A stretch of 64,000 nt of DNA from the NCBI GenBank assembly GCA_011192015.1, contig DUET01000078.1, positions 14,854 to 78,853 on the forward strand. Direction: 5' to 3'. This DNA comes from Anaerolineae bacterium (GTDB lineage: Bacteria; Chloroflexota; Anaerolineae; Anaerolineales; E44-bin32). The translations under genes were made by a program, and so were the position numbers. This document shows, piece by piece, positions 31,898 through 39,139 of the stretch. The notes under the pieces are model-generated. The model was not told the origin of the DNA. It did no database searches and saw only the letters and a list, made by a program, of their open reading frames with translations. Every line of letters starts with the position of its first letter. Within the stretch, counting starts at the first letter, position 1.

Positions 31898-33790
31898 TCA
31901 GGCCAATCGATGTCCATCTCCCACCCGAACGGTCACACCCTCCTCGTTCAAATGCTCCATAAGGGCCAATGCGTACTTCCTCGACGTGCCGAAGAAATCA
32001 CGCACCTCTGCCACCGTTAATTCATCCCTCTCCTTCAACTTACTCCTGATAACGCCGACCATCTCTCGATAGGTGTCCTCATCAAACACGACGGCGTCGG
32101 ATACTTTGACCAGTTTCCCTTGATTCAACAAATACCCCATAACTTCTTCATCAACCGCATCGAGGCAATCCTTGATCGAGGGAGGTGTGTGTTTCGATGC
32201 ATCAAACCGTTGTTTTAACCTCTTCCAGCTTTCGGTTTGTTCTTTATTAAGCCGAGGGGCATAGTTTGTGCTGCGCACACGATACCCATCGATTTTCACG
32301 ATTTCCTCATTACTCGCATACTCCAGCAGCAATGCGAACGATCTGGCATCTGCTTTCATGCGGCTTTTGAGTTCTTCGCGCGGTATTCCCTGTCTGAGAG
32401 GATATTGTGCATGGAAATGTTCAATCTCACGCGTCATCTTCTCCAGCCAATTTGCTAATATCGTCCTTTCGATGACCATGGTTTCTGAATCCACATCGAT
32501 GTCTCCCTCTTCCATCGATATGAGCATGTCTGTCTTGACCAGTTCCTGCAGTCCACTCTCAGCCTGCTGAATATCTAAACCCGCTCTTGAAATCGCTTCC
32601 TTGATGGATATTATTCCGTGCCCCTTGAGCGTCTGCTGCAGTATCTCTGCAGAGCCCCCTGTCATCAAATCCTTCAAACGTGCCAAGGATTCGGGATCCT
32701 TTCTTCGATATCGCCTCGCTGGATGTGGATCCGCGACTCTACCCCCTCCGATGGTGGCTCCTGGCGAGGGTCTTCTCAGGATGAAACGATCCCCGCGCGC
32801 GGCAATCACGGGATCTTCTAATACCAACTGGATCCACCCGTTCTCTCCTGGTGCCAACCGCTCTGCTCCCAATAGTCGCACTCGTGCCATGCGTTGCGCC
32901 GCTCCCAGATAGATCTTCACCTGCTGATTGTGCTTCATCGCGCCGGGGGCAACTCTCAACATACGCACGCTCGCATCCACCAGTTTCGTGGCTTCGAAAT
33001 CGCCCTTCCTGCAAACCACATCCCCCCTCTCCACCCGATTCGCGTCTACACCGGCTAGATTTGCCGCCACACGGCTTCCTGGTATCGCCCTCTCGACTTT
33101 CGTTTTATGCGTTTGCATCCCTCGGATCCTGCCCTTCAATCCTTCCGGCAAGACGAGGATCTCGTCTCCAATTTGTAACCACCCATCGATGAGTGTTCCA
33201 GTCACCACGGTTCCAAAACCGGCCATCGTAAATGCCCTGTCGATGGGAAGCCTGGGTCTTCCAATGTCTCTTCTCACCTCCGCTGTCCCGATCGTTCTTT
33301 CGATAGCTTCCACCAAATCAAGGATGCCTTCACCGCTTAAAGCAGAGACGTTAACGATCTCAGAGCCTTCAAATCTCGTCTTCTTGAAAACCGTCTCCAC
33401 GTCCTCTCTCACCAGCTTCAACCATGCAGGATCCTCTACCAGATCGATCTTTGTCAACGCAACCACACACCTCGGCACCTCCAGCAGATCCAGGATTGCA
33501 AGGTGTTCTCTGGTCTGAGGCATTACGCCTTCGTCGGCTGCCACAACAAAAAGGGCCGCGTCAATTCCCCCGATTCCTGCAAGCATGTTCTCGATGAAAT
33601 CTCGATGCCCCGGCACGTCGATAATCCCGATTTCCTCTCCATGCGGTAAATTCATCCAAGCGAATCCCAGATCGATTGTCATCTCGCGTTCTTGTTCTTC
33701 TCTGAGGCGATCTGGATGTATTCCCGTTAGACGCTCGATCAATCGGGATTTTCCATGATCTACATGTCCTGCTGTTCCCAATACGCGCAT
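31898..33790 (-). CDS. selB: Selenocysteine-specific translation elongation factor
   Basis: [18 protein letters not shown]. Collinear with E. coli SelB in the GTPase and domains II/III, plus a C-terminal winged-helix region of about 280 aa. Confidence 0.9.
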
Positions 33791-33847
33791 TTTTCAAACT
33801 CAGGGGATTTGACCTTGATGATCGTAGGGGATGTCATCTTTGATTGG

Positions 33848-35023
33848 TTATTTCAAGCTCTGGCGCGATTCTACTTCCGCCGCCCATTCTCTAAGGTTCT
33901 TCAATAATTCCATGATCCTTTGCCGGTCATGCTCCTGCATATCACCGAATCCCTGCAGCAGTTTCTTTACGTTATCACTCATCGTTCCGACTTCAGATGC
34001 CAGTTTTTCATGCAACCTCATGTGTTCACGCCATTGCTCGTCATTGGTCAATTTCTGGGTGTTCCATCGTTTCTGCTCGTCAGCCTTGAACGTTGTCCAT
34101 TCCTGTGACGCTCGATCTTCTGCCAATCGCTGCATTTCGCCAATTTCGTGGATTCGTCTGTCGAGTCTTTCTTGAGTATCGGTCAGTTCTCCTTGCAGCT
34201 GCCGAAGATTTCGATAGGTTTCATCATATGCCATGGCCCGGTCTTGAAACTCTTCAGCCTTTGATTCGAATTCATCAAAACGCGCAGCCCATGCTTTTCT
34301 CTCGCGCTCGAATTCAACAATCTTCGAGGTTTGTTGCTCCGTCCAAAGATCCTGCGCTTCTCGCCTTTCCTTCTCTCTTCCACTGAGTTGCGATAATCGA
34401 ATTTCGCTTTGTTCGATCCGATCCTGCATGGAATCGACACTGCTGCGCGCAAGCTCAGTCCGTTCGCGCATATCCGAAAGTTCCGAGAGAATGTCCGTAA
34501 CGCGCTTCATGTCTTGTTTGCGCCCCTCTTCCAGCGATGCCAAAACGATGGCGCGTTCTTCATCGAAAACCACTTGGCCTTCGAATCGTTTCTCTATAGT
34601 ATTGAGACCGCGGGATATTTGGACCTGCTCTTCGCGCTGCTGATCAATTTGCTTCCTGATATCGCTCAGATCGCGCAAGCCTTCCCTCAGTTCCACTGTG
34701 GTTTTAGATAATTTCTCAATATCGCTTCTTCCATAGCTGTCTTTGCCATCAACGCTTCCTTCACTTGTTTTTGAAGATTCATCGATCATGCGAGATATCG
34801 CCTGCCGATGTTTTGCCAGGGCGCTTTCGACTTCGCTTACCTTGCTGCTCATTGCGGCAATGCGTGCCGTTTCTCCTGCAAGCTCTTTCACCTGCCGCTG
34901 CAAGCTTTCGATCGTTGTAATATTTCCTTCCAGTCTTTCCTTCAAGCGCGTGATGGTTTCAGCATCCTTTTGACGCTGTTTTTCAAGCCACTTGACCTTC
35001 TTCCCGAGCTCTTTATCGTCCAT
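33848..35023 (-). CDS. Coiled-coil protein (391 aa), unknown function
   Basis: E/R/K/Q-rich heptad-like sequence throughout, with no TM segment. ATG 35023 with GGAGGG 7 nt upstream. The stop codon is 57 nt before selB. Confidence 0.7.
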   Translation of the reverse strand: MDDKELGKKVKWLEKQRQKDAETITRLKERLEGNITTIESLQRQVKELAGETARIAAMSSKVSEVESALAKHRQAISRMIDESSKTSEGSVDGKDSYGRSDIEKLSKTTVELREGLRDLSDIRKQIDQQREEQVQISRGLNTIEKRFEGQVVFDEERAIVLASLEEGRKQDMKRVTDILSELSDMRERTELARSSVDSMQDRIEQSEIRLSQLSGREKERREAQDLWTEQQTSKIVEFERERKAWAARFDEFESKAEEFQDRAMAYDETYRNLRQLQGELTDTQERLDRRIHEIGEMQRLAEDRASQEWTTFKADEQKRWNTQKLTNDEQWREHMRLHEKLASEVGTMSDNVKKLLQGFGDMQEHDRQRIMELLKNLREWAAEVESRQSLK

Positions 35024-35052
35024 CAAAGAACCCTCCATACGCACTTTCGCGG

Positions 35053-35061
35053 ATTATAGCA
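35053..35061 (-). promoter_or_regulatory. Extended -10 promoter TGCTATAAT of the coiled-coil/selB unit
   Basis: The exact 9-mer on the minus strand, 29 nt upstream of ATG 35023. Confidence 0.5.
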
Positions 35062-35080
35062 TGTCATCCCGCTGGTGTAT

Positions 35081-36475
35081 TCAAGGCAACAGGTTCATCA
35101 ATCCCTCCCCTGCTTTCACCACCAGAGGATATGTCAATTGTGGAAACAATCCAAGCACCAGGCACAATCCCAATCCTGACATCAGGAAGATGCGTTCAGG
35201 CCAACTGATTCTCTCCTCACTTCCGCTTCGCGATCTCAACATAGCGATCATCCATCGCAATCCGCCCATCGTGATCGCAACGGTCCCAATCAATATCGCT
35301 CCAGCGGCAATTCCGCTCACTGGTGCCAAGATTGTCATCAGCGCCCATCTTCCTGGAAATCCTGCAGTAAGCGGAAGCCCCCCAACCGCGAACAGTCCAG
35401 CCATCGTTGCTCCTGTTGCGTACGGAAATCGCCACAGGCTTCCTTCGAGTCTCTCAAGGGTATCTTCCCCCTCACGTTGTTTCAAGACAGCTATGCCCAA
35501 CGCCCATACTGCCAGGCTTATCGCTCTCACCCCCGAATGCCCGATCGCCAGCTCGTATCCTGCTGCCTGTCCGGTTCCAACCGCGATTACGATCACACCA
35601 AAATCCGCCAGCAACGCGTATGCCATCATCTTGCTGAATTGCCTTTGCGCAATCGCCATCGCGCCTCCGAAAACCACCATGACCGCGCCCACCAATCTGG
35701 CTCCTGCAAAGAGATTCTCATTTTGCCGCAACCACGGATATTGATTCAGAAAGAACAGCAGAAAGAATAATCCCGCGCTCTGCAATATGACCGCCACAAA
35801 CATCAATCCGTAGGGTTTGGCTTCCTCTCCCGCAGTTGGCAACCAAATGTGAAAAGGAGGTATGCTCAGCAGAATTGCGAATCCCAACGCCAGAAAGGCT
35901 GTCGCTTGCATTGCCTCCTGCGTTGCGCCGCTTGTGATCCCCCCGGTTTCAACCAACCACCCTGCCCACAGAAGCACGATCATTCCCAGGGTGTATAAGA
36001 TCAATAAGCGAAGAGCTCCTTTGCGTGCCTGGAATCGTCCCTCCACCAAGATCAAAACTGCTCCCATGGCTGCTAATTCGATGAATAAAACCGCAAACAG
36101 GAATGGTTTTACCATCAAAGATGCCGCTACTACATACACCATGATCAAGCCGACACTCGGCAAGTATCGGCTTCTCTCCGCCATCCATGTGCCGCCGATC
36201 ATGAAGGCACCGATCAGATAAAGGAAACCCACGGCGGTACGGTTTCCATCATCGAGAGTTAAGGCTCTGCCGAGAATCATCCAGGTTCCTTCTACACGCA
36301 CGCCCGTGGTCCCCATTGAAAGCGCCTCTTCGATGGGCATGAGCAACGCAAATGCGCCGAGTAAGGCCGCACCCAATACTGCGATCGCAATCACAGCTTC
36401 TCTACGCAACCGGATAAAGGGTATGACGGCAGCCAGGAGAATGCTTCCTATCGTCAAGATCAATGGTGCGCTCAC
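35081..36475 (-). CDS. Complex-I/Mrp antiporter-like membrane subunit (NuoN/NuoM/MrpD-like), divergent
   Basis: About 13 TM helices. LSIPPFHIWLPTAGEEAKPYG matches the PFHxWLPxA...AP core of the Proton_antipo_M family. GTGA overlap with the upstream gene. Confidence 0.65.
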   Translation of the reverse strand: MSAPLILTIGSILLAAVIPFIRLRREAVIAIAVLGAALLGAFALLMPIEEALSMGTTGVRVEGTWMILGRALTLDDGNRTAVGFLYLIGAFMIGGTWMAERSRYLPSVGLIMVYVVAASLMVKPFLFAVLFIELAAMGAVLILVEGRFQARKGALRLLILYTLGMIVLLWAGWLVETGGITSGATQEAMQATAFLALGFAILLSIPPFHIWLPTAGEEAKPYGLMFVAVILQSAGLFFLLFFLNQYPWLRQNENLFAGARLVGAVMVVFGGAMAIAQRQFSKMMAYALLADFGVIVIAVGTGQAAGYELAIGHSGVRAISLAVWALGIAVLKQREGEDTLERLEGSLWRFPYATGATMAGLFAVGGLPLTAGFPGRWALMTILAPVSGIAAGAILIGTVAITMGGLRWMIAMLRSRSGSEERISWPERIFLMSGLGLCLVLGLFPQLTYPLVVKAGEGLMNLLP

Positions 36476-37089
36476 GACAATCCTTCTACTTCATCCGTTG
36501 ATGCCCCCACGATGAGATAGCTTACGACAATGGATATACCGATATGAATGGCGGTCATGAATGCAAGCACGGCTAGAGAGGGCTCAACGACAACGTACAC
36601 GATCTCAAAACCTGCCATCGCGCTTAATAATCCAATACCCACTCGGAAGGGTTCCTCCGATATTCCCAGGTGCAGCAAACCAAGCCCCAATAACAATCCC
36701 GACCCCAATGCCGCAGCAGGGTGTACGGCTTGCGGAAGGAACATCCCTCCTCTTTCCACAAGCCCCCACATCGATGCGCTTACCAGCAACACACCGATGA
36801 TACGAAAGGCAAAACCCGAGGGAAGCCCCTCTCGTTCCGACAATCTGCTTTCATATCCCACACGTACTACACTCATGGCCAGAATGGCACATGCCATCAT
36901 CCCACCGACCAGTTTCGCGGCTGCCACTTGAATGGGAAGCGCCAATCCTACCAGCCACGTCAGCGCGATGTATTCTCCAGCCAACATCAGCAGCATCCAG
37001 CGCCGATCCTTCAACACGATCGCCAATGCGCCTGTTATGAACGCCATCCCTACCGCAATCATGGCTAATTCGCGCAACCAAGAAATCAT
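36472..37089 (-). CDS. Polytopic membrane protein (205 aa), weakly HyfE/NuoK-like
   Basis: About 6 TM helices, with membrane-embedded acidic residues (GISEEPFRVGIGLLSAMAGFEIVY). ATGA and GTGA overlaps on both sides. Confidence 0.55.
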   Translation of the reverse strand: MISWLRELAMIAVGMAFITGALAIVLKDRRWMLLMLAGEYIALTWLVGLALPIQVAAAKLVGGMMACAILAMSVVRVGYESRLSEREGLPSGFAFRIIGVLLVSASMWGLVERGGMFLPQAVHPAAALGSGLLLGLGLLHLGISEEPFRVGIGLLSAMAGFEIVYVVVEPSLAVLAFMTAIHIGISIVVSYLIVGASTDEVEGLS

Positions 37090-38660
37090 GATCCCAATCC
37101 ACTACCAAGCTGGATGAGCAGCAGGATGACGAAGATCCACAACATAGCCCCCTCGCCCTCGAGAATTCCTCCAATGGCTCGTAAGACCCTCAAAATCCCT
37201 TGAGCTATCACTCCCGCGATCTCCAAGAAAGGAGCCTCATTCAATCGCGCGAATCCCATTTGTATCCGCCTCAACCACCGTCCTTTGACTCTCCTCAACG
37301 AAAGAACGCCGATTCCCACAAGTCCGGCGGTAATCAAGCTGGTGACAATCGACCACAGCCCCATTCCAGAATCCGCTCCAATGGATAATCCAAACCCTCC
37401 TACTATCGGCAGCATCAAGGCCGCGGTGTAAAGACTACGCGCAAGATCATCAACATACCAGGGGCGCAGCTCATCGAATGCATCCCTCACAATCCCCACA
37501 ATGATCATTGCCAGGCCGATCATGCCCAATATCGGAATCCAAATATGTTCGCCCGCTTCGAATCCTTCCGCCATAGATTCCACGATCATCGATCCGGGCG
37601 ACCAAACGGGGATCAGGATCATCAAGCCCGCAAGAAATGGAATTATCCTCTGCCAAGGAGCGTAGATCTTCCAAATCGATCCAAGGGTTCCCATCATCAA
37701 TAGGATCAGAACAGCATCCACGATTACATCATTTGCATGCTCTGGTCTCAAACTTGCTGCCATGATCCCTAAGAATGCCACACTTTGTATCAGGAAACGA
37801 CGTCTTTCCGGCATTTCGTCTGCAAGCAACCATCTCATACCAGCCACCAACATGCCGATGGCTCCCCCGATTCCCAATCCAATGCTCAATCCGTCGGATA
37901 AACCAAACGTGAGTTGGCGAGCCAGAATGGGCAACCCAACGACCGGAGACAGCAATCCGATGAGGATGGGAAAGGCCTCCTCGGTTTCGCCTTTATTGGA
38001 GATCCTGTATCCAAGCGAAAAGATCCCCAGTCGTAGAATCACAGCCAATATGAGAAGCTCCACCGCCCAAGCGCTGGCCAGTGGCACTTCCAGATCATCA
38101 ACTCCACCCGCCAATCCATTTGCGATTGAAGTCCCGATAATCGCAAATATCCCAATCCAATCTACAACCACTCCTGCCAGCAGCGTTGATACCTCTCGTT
38201 CTTCTTCCGCCACCGTCAGTCCCTGGATCAACCTCACCAGGTCCATCAACGCCCAACTCATGGCGACACTCAGCAGGTTTGCAGAAAGCAAAGCCATGAT
38301 CGCAAGCCCTGTATAGGCAAGCTTCATCGGATGGAGTTGAATTTCCCTCTGCCCGATTCTCACAACTTCTGAAAGCAGAATCGCAATCAAGGATGCGATC
38401 GTCGCTAGGATCAGTTTTGAGTTTGTAGAATCTGCAAGGATACGGATTTGTGTGCCGAAGATGTCCAGGGGTCTCCAAATGGACAAACTTGCCCTTATAG
38501 GCGCTCCCTGTGTGATAAGTACACTGACTATCAAGGCGATGAAAGCAACAGCGATAGATAGTCCCCAGCGAAATCTTAGGCTTCGCTTCCTGAATGCCCA
38601 AATCGCTACCATACCCCCCATCAGGATCAGTATCGGCAAGGTCGCCAATGGACACTCCAC
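37086..38660 (-). CDS. Polytopic membrane protein (524 aa), possibly a degenerate antiporter-like subunit
   Basis: About 14 hydrophobic helices. GTG start. First gene of a translationally coupled trio. Confidence 0.55.
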   Translation of the reverse strand: MECPLATLPILILMGGMVAIWAFRKRSLRFRWGLSIAVAFIALIVSVLITQGAPIRASLSIWRPLDIFGTQIRILADSTNSKLILATIASLIAILLSEVVRIGQREIQLHPMKLAYTGLAIMALLSANLLSVAMSWALMDLVRLIQGLTVAEEEREVSTLLAGVVVDWIGIFAIIGTSIANGLAGGVDDLEVPLASAWAVELLILAVILRLGIFSLGYRISNKGETEEAFPILIGLLSPVVGLPILARQLTFGLSDGLSIGLGIGGAIGMLVAGMRWLLADEMPERRRFLIQSVAFLGIMAASLRPEHANDVIVDAVLILLMMGTLGSIWKIYAPWQRIIPFLAGLMILIPVWSPGSMIVESMAEGFEAGEHIWIPILGMIGLAMIIVGIVRDAFDELRPWYVDDLARSLYTAALMLPIVGGFGLSIGADSGMGLWSIVTSLITAGLVGIGVLSLRRVKGRWLRRIQMGFARLNEAPFLEIAGVIAQGILRVLRAIGGILEGEGAMLWIFVILLLIQLGSGLGS

Positions 38661-39139
38661 GTGTTGCTAGTCGAATTCGATCAAGGATACCATGATACAC
38701 GCTCAGTCAGTTCGAAAGAAAAGGCGTGCTATACTGGTTTTGTGAGAATGAATCCTGGGAAAAACGCGCTCTTCGCTTCATCGATAACACGGAATCGAAG
38801 CGCCCATGCCCATGTTCATTCCAATCTGACAAGGCGTCAATGTCCATCCATATCTATGTACAGTCCAGATCAAATCATGGATGTCATCCCATATCGCTTC
38901 GTGAAACCACGGCCTTCTATTCCGGGCCCATCAACCTTCATACAATTCCATAAACCCTCTCGATCCCCATCGTCACTGACACTTTGCCATGCGCGCTGCT
39001 ATTATCGCGCTTGTCGTTGCCTCCATCCCATCCCTATTCCGGATACGCCGCTTCTCAAGTGGCTTGGTGAAAACCTCCAGCCGCTTCGCATCCATCGATA
39101 CCGATCCCACATCCAGAGCCAATCCAGCGAGAAAACCGT

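Follow-up and report, generated by a model that had tools for sequence, protein, structure and literature searches.

The window analysed here, 64,000 nucleotides (nt) of contig DUET01000078.1 from an Anaerolineae bacterium assembly (GCA_011192015.1; positions 14,854 to 78,853), carries on its minus strand three successive genes for membrane proteins, designated p1, p2 and p3. We hold with high confidence that this trio comprises two antiporter-like subunits of the complex I/Mrp superfamily on either side of a small membrane subunit, and that it functions independently of complex I and of membrane-bound hydrogenases. The first gene, p1 (37086–38660; 524 amino acids, GTG start), encodes a very divergent NuoL/MrpA-type antiporter-like subunit. 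It is followed by p2 (36472–37089; 205 amino acids, ATG start), a seven-helix membrane protein of an unnamed family, and by p3 (35081–36475; 464 amino acids, GTG start), a divergent antiporter-like subunit of the NuoM/N/MrpD type. Consecutive genes overlap by 4 nt, as ATGA between the p1 stop and p2 start (37086–37089) and as GTGA between the p2 stop and p3 start (36472–36475), the latter with GAAGGA 5 nt upstream. Direct reading of the minus-strand junctions, gggatcATGAtttc for p1/p2 and attgtcGTGAgcgc for p2/p3, bore out the overlaps described in an earlier sequence-only reading of the window. From the overlapping genes and strict co-occurrence of the three proteins we infer that they form one complex, which would be an autonomous three-subunit member of the complex I/Mrp superfamily.

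Assignment of p3 was straightforward. The protein passes the Pfam Proton_antipo_M model (PF00361) with 68.7 bits over a cut-off of 21.5, in agreement with the earlier view of the last gene as a divergent relative of the NuoL/M/N–MrpA/D family; scores for the NCBIfam NuoM, NuoN and MnhD models were all far under their cut-offs. A profile of 18 family members aligned with the nine canonical paralogs of the genome over 369 columns (hhalign probability 99.5%, E 9e-23). The closest sequence match in the PDB was 6u8y_X, labelled NADH dehydrogenase subunit M (E 2e-21), a chain of the Pyrococcus furiosus MBS complex, and Mrp chains were also among the matches. The PPFHxW core is present, and the antiporter motif quoted in the sequence-only reading, PFHIWLPTAGEEAKPYG, was found at residues 207–223. 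A joint tree of p1 and p3 proteins has long branches and an unresolved base for both clades, and was used for broad groupings only. The p3 proteins formed a single clade in it (Shimodaira–Hasegawa-like approximate likelihood ratio test, SH-aLRT, 96 for p1 and 100 for p3) grouped with M/N-type paralogs, and the p1 proteins, likewise a single clade, adjoined the NuoL-type paralogs. Judged by its sequence, p3 is thus a divergent NuoN/MrpD-type member of the Proton_antipo_M superfamily.

The relationship of p1 to the same superfamily is hidden at the level of single searches. No Pfam or NCBIfam match was obtained for p1, and its HMMER profile matched no PDB sequence. An AlphaFold2 model built from 46 orthologs (predicted local distance difference test, pLDDT, 86; predicted template-modelling score, pTM, 0.88) was compared with the PDB by Foldseek and matched NuoL, MrpD and NdhF chains with E values of 2e-12 to 1e-9, probability 1.0 and template-modelling scores of 0.6–0.73. 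A direct profile–profile test of p1 against p3 gave a probability of 2%, too weak to use, and the nine canonical paralogs of the genome were taken for comparison instead; against these the p1 profile reached 97% (E 4e-11, 443 columns). A transitive link to Pfam came from a distant p1 ortholog (L078:5588–7327), which passes PF00361 with 47.2 bits and is homologous to the p1 profile over its full length (hhalign 99%, E 1e-19). Because the fold match, the profile match and the link through this ortholog agree, p1 is assigned as an antiporter-like subunit of the NuoL/MrpA type. The likeness of the first gene to such subunits, previously judged by eye, is thereby substantiated.

In the p1 model, 14 core helices, with a beta-hairpin between transmembrane helices (TM) 2 and 3, lead into TM15; after this come an amphipathic lateral helix and, at residues 501–521, a last TM anchor. 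The broken helices TM7 and TM12 are kept. The lateral helix spans approximately residues 456–495 (~40 residues) and has a hydrophobic moment of 0.45–0.61, as against ~0.2 for the TM helices. As modelled, this is the layout of NuoL/MrpA with a shorter lateral helix.

Profile searches with p2 gave no match in Pfam, NCBIfam or PDB sequences. Its AlphaFold2 model (pLDDT 92) consists of seven helices, for which Foldseek returned nothing from the PDB below E 0.3. The top complex-I-type fold match was NdhG/NuoJ, with a probability of 0.77 and template-modelling scores of 0.42–0.49, and the N-terminal half of p2 aligned co-linearly with NuoJ TM1–3 with an hhalign E value of 0.008 but a probability of 5%. 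These are hints only, and identity with NuoJ is not claimed. NuoK, NuoA and NuoH were rejected as candidates, hhalign comparison with the genome's own copies giving probabilities below 1%. The proposal that the middle protein resembles HyfE or NuoK did not hold, given the lack of a PF00420 match, an hhalign probability of 0% against NuoK and the absence of any significant Foldseek match. We conclude that p2 represents a new family, at most faintly reminiscent of NuoJ, and is not HyfE/NuoK-like. A p2 profile search of 1.84 billion proteins retrieved 1056 representative clusters. Residues conserved throughout the phylum are Gly63, Gly153, Gly160, Tyr40, Tyr165 and Tyr191. Lys59 in helix 3 and an acidic residue at position 162 in helix 6 (Glu in the window's protein, Asp in Chloroflexia) are kept in hydrogenase-linked forms of the trio, described below, and in most Anaerolineales.

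The three proteins were always found together. A scan of a collection holding one genome per species located the three-gene unit at 69 loci, and the p2/p3 overlap of 4 nt is retained in most of them. Almost all show the block hisS–(hutH)–p1–p2–p3–coiled-coil gene–selB; hisS, selB, fmt, recJ and other housekeeping genes surround the trio. In distant lineages the flanks differ, while the layout of approximately 550, 200–260 and 470 amino acids stays. A search with the p3 family returned more than 200 proteins, and all those with a source name came from Anaerolineales or Chloroflexota. Profiles of p1 and p2 matched only themselves in their own genome, so neither has paralogs, and the p2 profile could be used as a presence marker for the trio with no paralogs to confuse the counts. 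With it, the trio was detected in each of the 34 further genomes sampled from the order, in 7 of 11 from elsewhere in the class, and in 94 of the 401 Chloroflexota genomes sampled in total. The genome samples, at one per species, consist partly of metagenome-assembled genomes (MAGs), and a gene is reported as absent only where the genome is at least 96% complete. Pairwise ratios of non-synonymous to synonymous substitution rates (dN/dS) were 0.06–0.14 for p3 and 0.07–0.31 for p1 and p2. All three genes are under purifying selection, and gene decay is excluded. Recurrence at 69 species-level loci together with low dN/dS also shows that the arrangement is no product of chance. The unit is of single origin and appears to have been inherited mainly vertically within Chloroflexota. 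One 12.6-kb contig (L033; JAIWHF010000066.1) from a MAG labelled as a Methanosarcinales archaeon carries an Anaerolineales-type p2–p3–coiled-coil–selB arrangement, with p3 at 44% identity; the contig most probably derives from a Chloroflexota genome and was binned in error.

Independence of the trio was apparent at the level of the contig, the genome and its relatives. Family searches of the whole genome (2.95 Mb, 108 contigs, 90% complete) placed no NuoH (PF00146), NuoK (PF00420) or NuoD gene and no further PF00361 match on the 149-kb contig of the window, as the sequence-only reading had supposed from the immediate surroundings. Among relatives, four genomes (G076, which is closed, 2.6 Mb and 99% complete, and G148, G184 and G242) contain the trio, no match to PF00346 or PF00146, and p3 as their sole PF00361 match. 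NuoH is missing from seven of 41 trio-bearing Anaerolineae genomes, and an eighth has a sub-threshold match only. The seven (the last three of the four above together with G076, G202, G266 and G394) belong to the same order, in a single family (f3), and have genomes of 2.0–2.8 Mb that are 96–99% complete. These small-genome Anaerolineales appear to do without complex I, membrane-bound hydrogenases and Mrp altogether. Because relatives without NuoD, NuoH or other PF00361 genes keep the trio, it must be able to work without such a partner, and the suggestion of a stand-alone module is borne out in at least four genomes.

We then considered the residues that carry protons in canonical subunits. 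Positions were mapped by hhalign, MAFFT and HMMER alignments to canonical subunits, which in the case of p1 amounts to the profile alignment of a very divergent protein, and are given for the window's order, Anaerolineales. The canonical TM5 Glu corresponds to Glu133 in p3 (at least 90% conserved in the order) and to Ala in p1, where a nearly invariant Asp140 lies one turn on (+3). For the TM7 Lys, p3 has Leu and p1 a nearly invariant Arg210. The Lys/His of TM8 is matched in p3 by an invariant Gln232 followed by Ser233, and the p1 segment is ~14 residues shorter. At the His/Gln position of TM10/11 an invariant Asp291 is found in p3 and no conserved residue in p1. The Lys/Glu of TM12 is an invariant Arg376 in p3 and variable in p1. 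Neither protein therefore carries the canonical relay of TM5 Glu, TM7 Lys, TM8 Lys/His and TM12 Lys/Glu. Conservation analysis showed that TM7 and TM12 retain the Gly/Pro motifs of broken helices. Between lineages, the canonical Glu and Lys of p1 are kept at loci L129 and L101 and both lost in Chloroflexus and Roseiflexus. In p3, the TM7 position carries Arg in every hydrogenase-linked form and a hydrophobic residue in free forms; at TM12 the Roseiflexus, L129 and L101 proteins have Lys where those of Anaerolineales have Arg. A hydrophilic axis is still marked by conserved polar residues, but Arg stands for Lys at the usual proton-loading site.

Our best guess is that the trio acts as a minimal, Mrp-like exchanger of cations and protons whose chemistry has been altered. 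It would operate as a secondary transporter, exchanging a monovalent cation for protons or moving ions down or against the membrane potential. A rebuilt polar axis, made up of Glu133, Gln232, Asp291 and Arg376 in p3, Asp140 and Arg210 in p1 and Lys59 and Glu162 in p2, would replace the canonical Glu-Lys-Lys/His-Lys relay. p2 would take the place held by NuoA/J/K or MrpB/C/E/F/G in known machines and, by analogy with those machines and from the model, the C-terminal amphipathic helix and last TM helix of p1 probably clamp the assembly from the side. In Anaerolineales, the window's genome included, no redox partner accompanies the trio. Taken as a whole, with the firmly held identity and autonomy blended in, we rate this explanation at slightly short of an even chance; ion exchange as the function, considered by itself, is a more tentative proposal. 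Conservation of polar and charged residues on the canonical axis is circumstantial evidence for ion exchange. Weak circumstantial support also comes from NuoH-less genomes G202, G266, G394 and G314, in which no CPA1/2, NhaC or NhaA antiporter was detected (three Pfam families were searched in eight genomes; other antiporter families were not searched).

Several observations weigh against this proposal. The proton-carrying residues of NuoL/M/N and MrpA/D are mostly replaced in p3 (TM7 Leu, TM8 Gln/Ser and TM12 Arg), and Arg gives up a proton only reluctantly. p1 has Ala for the TM5 Glu, a shorter TM8 segment and no constant residue at the TM12 Lys position. Because the relay lysines are replaced, the canonical mechanism is counted against. 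The charges that are retained differ by lineage, which would be unusual if transport relied on a single fixed chemistry. The three trio genes include none of the Mrp small subunits to which the cation path is ascribed, and assembly of the trio is itself deduced only from gene coupling.

The same replacements suit an alternative in which the trio has lost transport and is kept for its shape and salt bridges, with a structural or sensing role as a membrane scaffold, an organiser or a voltage or pH sensor. Relay lysines turned into Arg, Leu and Gln/Ser, the shortened p1 TM8 segment, a lineage-dependent set of retained charges and the housekeeping neighbours hisS, selB, fmt and recJ would all be in keeping with it. 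However, the conserved buried polar residues, namely the invariant Gln232, Asp291 and Arg376 and nearly invariant Glu133 of p3 together with Lys59 and Glu/Asp162 of p2, make up the pattern expected of a working ion path, and the TM7 and TM12 broken-helix motifs are preserved. Where hydrogenase-like genes are attached, moreover, the trio presumably couples to something. We regard a non-transport role as unlikely, albeit the strongest of the rival explanations.

The trio family exists in two states, free and attached to hydrogenase-like partners. The attached state was found on closed contigs, identified by exact protein look-up, of Chloroflexus aurantiacus J-10-fl (ABY34325, ABY34328; locus L095:5017–12903), Roseiflexus sp. 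RS-1 (ABQ91043/4; L097:5389–11743) and Herpetosiphon aurantiacus (ABX04283; L096:6711–11918), and also at L129:1775–7456. In the three named organisms p1 is directly preceded by a protein of 361–369 amino acids that matches Complex1_49kDa with 107–134 bits. This short protein (359–369 amino acids across the family), encoded in the same operon as the trio, resembles NuoD and the [NiFe]-hydrogenase large subunit and is hereafter called D-like. An ortholog scoring at least 355 bits to the D-like profile was present, 2–3 kb from p2, in every one of the 36 genomes sampled from four families, among them those of Chloroflexus, Roseiflexus and Herpetosiphon; the remaining 16 trio-bearing genomes of the phylum-wide sample were searched with the same profile, and D-like proved neither adjacent nor orthologous. 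Most D-like proteins keep [NiFe] motifs, for example RICGEC (Roseiflexus) and DPCTAC (Chloroflexus). Three loci (L097, L105 and L129) showed a NuoB-like gene, which in Roseiflexus and L129 follows p3; the Roseiflexus copy scores 56 bits to PF01058 and keeps all four cluster cysteines, which are lost in L129. Chloroflexus and Herpetosiphon show only the large-subunit-like gene and no NuoB-like gene. Further downstream in Chloroflexus and Roseiflexus is a membrane protein of 272–274 amino acids with a weak trace of the NuoH C-terminal half (hhalign E 0.018), which is not relied on. No clear NuoH, NuoI or NuoC was found in the Chloroflexia trio operons. A second D-like paralog (~371–375 amino acids, ~185–190 bits to the D-like profile) is encoded away from the trio in G231 (C1:2722673–2723740) and other Chloroflexia genomes, and matches of ~200 bits to the profile also occur in several trio-only lineages. 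The order in which the attached and free states arose cannot be taken from the tree, with its long branches and unresolved base.

The Chloroflexia operon looks like an undescribed, stripped-down hydrogenase-related complex. Complexes of that kind with Mrp-like subunits are referred to as Ehr (PMC6349859, citing Marreiros et al. 2013), and of published concepts Ehr comes closest to the Chloroflexia form. Similarity to Ehr and group 4 [NiFe] enzymes (Mbh/Mbs; PDB 6cfw, 6u8y) lies in the co-encoded large-subunit-like and, in some cases, NuoB-like protein. The Chloroflexia form differs from them in that the large-subunit-like protein is short (~360 amino acids) and clear NuoH, NuoI and NuoC are missing, and the window's trio differs in having no such partner in its operon or genome. 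For the sequence-only reading, the rest of a standard nuo/mrp/hyf operon turning up in relatives would have counted against a stand-alone module. The relatives come partway to this in so far as a hydrogenase-large-subunit-like gene, sometimes with a NuoB-like gene, does stand beside the Chloroflexia trio; the operon is not, however, a standard nuo, mrp or hyf operon, and its additional genes have no orthologs in the window's genome.

It could be argued from these loci that the trio is generally the membrane arm of an Ehr-like redox complex, a redox-driven pump whose peripheral partner is encoded elsewhere in the window's genome. The constant position of the D-like gene before p1, the NuoB-like gene after p3 in Roseiflexus and L129, retention of the NiFe CxxC pairs and four cluster cysteines by the Roseiflexus proteins, and the downstream protein weakly like NuoH would fit such an arm. 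Yet the window's genome has no D-like ortholog; the best match, at 27% identity, is the large subunit of a separate and complete group-4-type cluster on contig C93. The four relatives described above carry the trio without any gene of the NuoD or NuoH family, and the 16 trio-bearing genomes with D-like neither adjacent nor orthologous point the same way. An Ehr-like arm is accordingly improbable for the window's trio.

Less probable by a clear margin of belief, and in our view very unlikely, is that the trio supplies spare or alternative distal subunits to one of the genome's own complex-I-like enzymes. Three clusters of this type are present, namely a 14-gene nuoA–N operon, a second H-J-K-L-M-M-N set and a group-4 [NiFe]-hydrogenase-type cluster, and variant forms of complex I can have additional antiporter-like subunits, as in the two-NuoM set. 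All NuoH, NuoK and NuoD genes and all other PF00361 matches of the genome lie on contigs C81, C93 and C7. Each cluster, however, has its own NuoH, NuoK and antiporter-like L/M/N subunits, so that the trio is not a displaced part of any of them. Conservation of the trio in genomes without complex I, always as a unit of three genes, also speaks against a spare-part role. Both complex I gene sets are on C81, the NuoD of the second being on C7. The group-4 cluster (C93:67299–75999) consists of NuoJ/K-like, two antiporter-like, NuoB-like, NuoCD-like, NuoH-like and NuoI-like genes, and its NuoCD-like large subunit keeps both CxxC pairs (RICGIC and DPCFSC).

The remaining idea, a DAB-like or Cup-like module for CO2 hydration or ion uptake that energises a partner enzyme, is scarcely credible, as its only support is the analogy of DabB, an antiporter-like protein working outside complex I with few partners, whereas the DabA (PF10070) needed by that system had no match at E ≤ 1 in the 90% complete genome, the trio has two antiporter-like subunits and one small membrane subunit with no soluble partner, and no soluble gene, carbonic-anhydrase-like or otherwise, accompanies it consistently. 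The CO2-uptake analogy of the sequence-only reading is thus set aside.

Of the known systems, Mrp (CPA3; PDB 6z16, 7qru, 7d3u; PMC7419157, PMC9568556), with its core of the MrpA N-terminal domain and MrpD, shares with the trio a pair of L/A-type and N/D-type subunits with no redox module. In both, the L/A-type subunit closes with TM15, then the amphipathic lateral helix, then TM16. The best fold matches of p1 include MrpD chains, and the p3 sequence matches include Mrp chains. The trio nevertheless has three genes in place of six or seven, with no MrpB, C, E, F or G in the operon (the MrpE/F/G families were not searched genome-wide). p1 also does without the MrpB-like C-terminal domain of MrpA, and most relay Lys/Glu residues are replaced. 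Complex I is similar in that the p1 fold approaches NuoL (E 2e-12, template-modelling score up to 0.73) and p3 belongs to the M/N family. Unlike complex I, the trio comprises no NuoH, A, J or K and no Q or N module, has a rebuilt charge relay and a lateral helix of ~40 rather than ~60–70 residues, and persists where complex I is absent. HyfD-HyfE-HyfF of E. coli hydrogenase 4 has the same large-small-large order with an antiporter-like protein on each side. HyfE, however, is a NuoK-type protein (PF00420), which p2 is not; there are no Hyf catalytic genes, and large or small hydrogenase subunits and a NuoH homolog are lacking on the contig. Members of the trio family are named "hypothetical protein", "proton-conducting transporter membrane subunit" or "NuoD-related protein" in databases, and full-text literature searches returned no description of the three-gene unit.

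The flanks of the trio were also inspected. Upstream, an intergenic region of 479 bp (38661–39139), expected to hold the trio promoter on the minus strand, separates p1 from a divergent histidine ammonia-lyase gene (TIGR01225, 557 bits), as anticipated by the earlier mention of a gap of about 480 bp and hutH. A consensus scan of this region for a minus-strand sigma-70 site found none, and no confident promoter can be named. Downstream, p3 is followed by a gene for a 398-amino-acid coiled-coil protein and then by selB. The 36-nt gap after p3 (35045–35080, minus strand), which marks the 3' boundary of the trio unit, contains TGCTATAAT, an extended −10-like box at 35047–35055 on the minus strand between the p3 stop and the coiled-coil gene; no terminator-like site was found in it by consensus scan. 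The presence of this promoter-like box agrees with the claim that the coiled-coil gene is separately promoted. Judging from a GGAGGG sequence and an in-frame ATG near 35023, translation of the coiled-coil protein may begin seven codons past the listed GTG.

The coiled-coil gene was considered as a fourth subunit and rejected, since it has its own TGCTATAAT box, pairs with selB and is not beside the trio in distant lineages. One or two putative glycosyltransferase genes part it from p3 in L063, L066 and L081. The inserts at these loci (L063:9271–11595, L081:8546–10866 and L066:2079–3482) are one or two genes of GT4 glycosyltransferase size on the opposite strand, their identity having been checked against Pfam in L063 only. 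The coiled-coil gene and selB remain adjacent in L063 and L066; selB was undetected in L081. In the window (31898–35044) and at loci L014–L082 these two genes are adjacent on one strand in most loci having both, which supports their forming a separate unit.

How antiporter-like subunits move ions and became coupled to redox chemistry is an open question for complex I, Mrp and membrane-bound hydrogenases alike. The trio, far simpler than seven-subunit Mrp or 14-subunit complex I, offers a test system for both ion movement and redox coupling, and is a natural counterpart of engineered "dissected antiporter modules" (PMC11496545). Its occurrence with and without hydrogenase-like partners, in cultured carriers that include Chloroflexus aurantiacus, Roseiflexus sp. 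RS-1 and Herpetosiphon aurantiacus, makes the coupling testable. There is also a consequence for annotation. With p1 and p2 unnamed or "hypothetical" and p3 mislabelled as NuoN or MnhD, calls of complex I and Mrp in Chloroflexota reconstructions are inflated. A bolder possibility, which we consider rather unlikely, is that the trio represents the complex I/Mrp membrane machine in a minimal, self-sufficient and ancestor-like form, which survives in two living states within one phylum, free in Anaerolineales and, in Roseiflexus, wired directly to a small dimer of [NiFe]-hydrogenase type with no proper NuoH. If true, it would provide a charge relay built on Arg, Asp and Gln in place of Lys and Glu, and a natural model for the joining or separation of antiporter modules and hydrogenases in the evolution of respiratory complexes.

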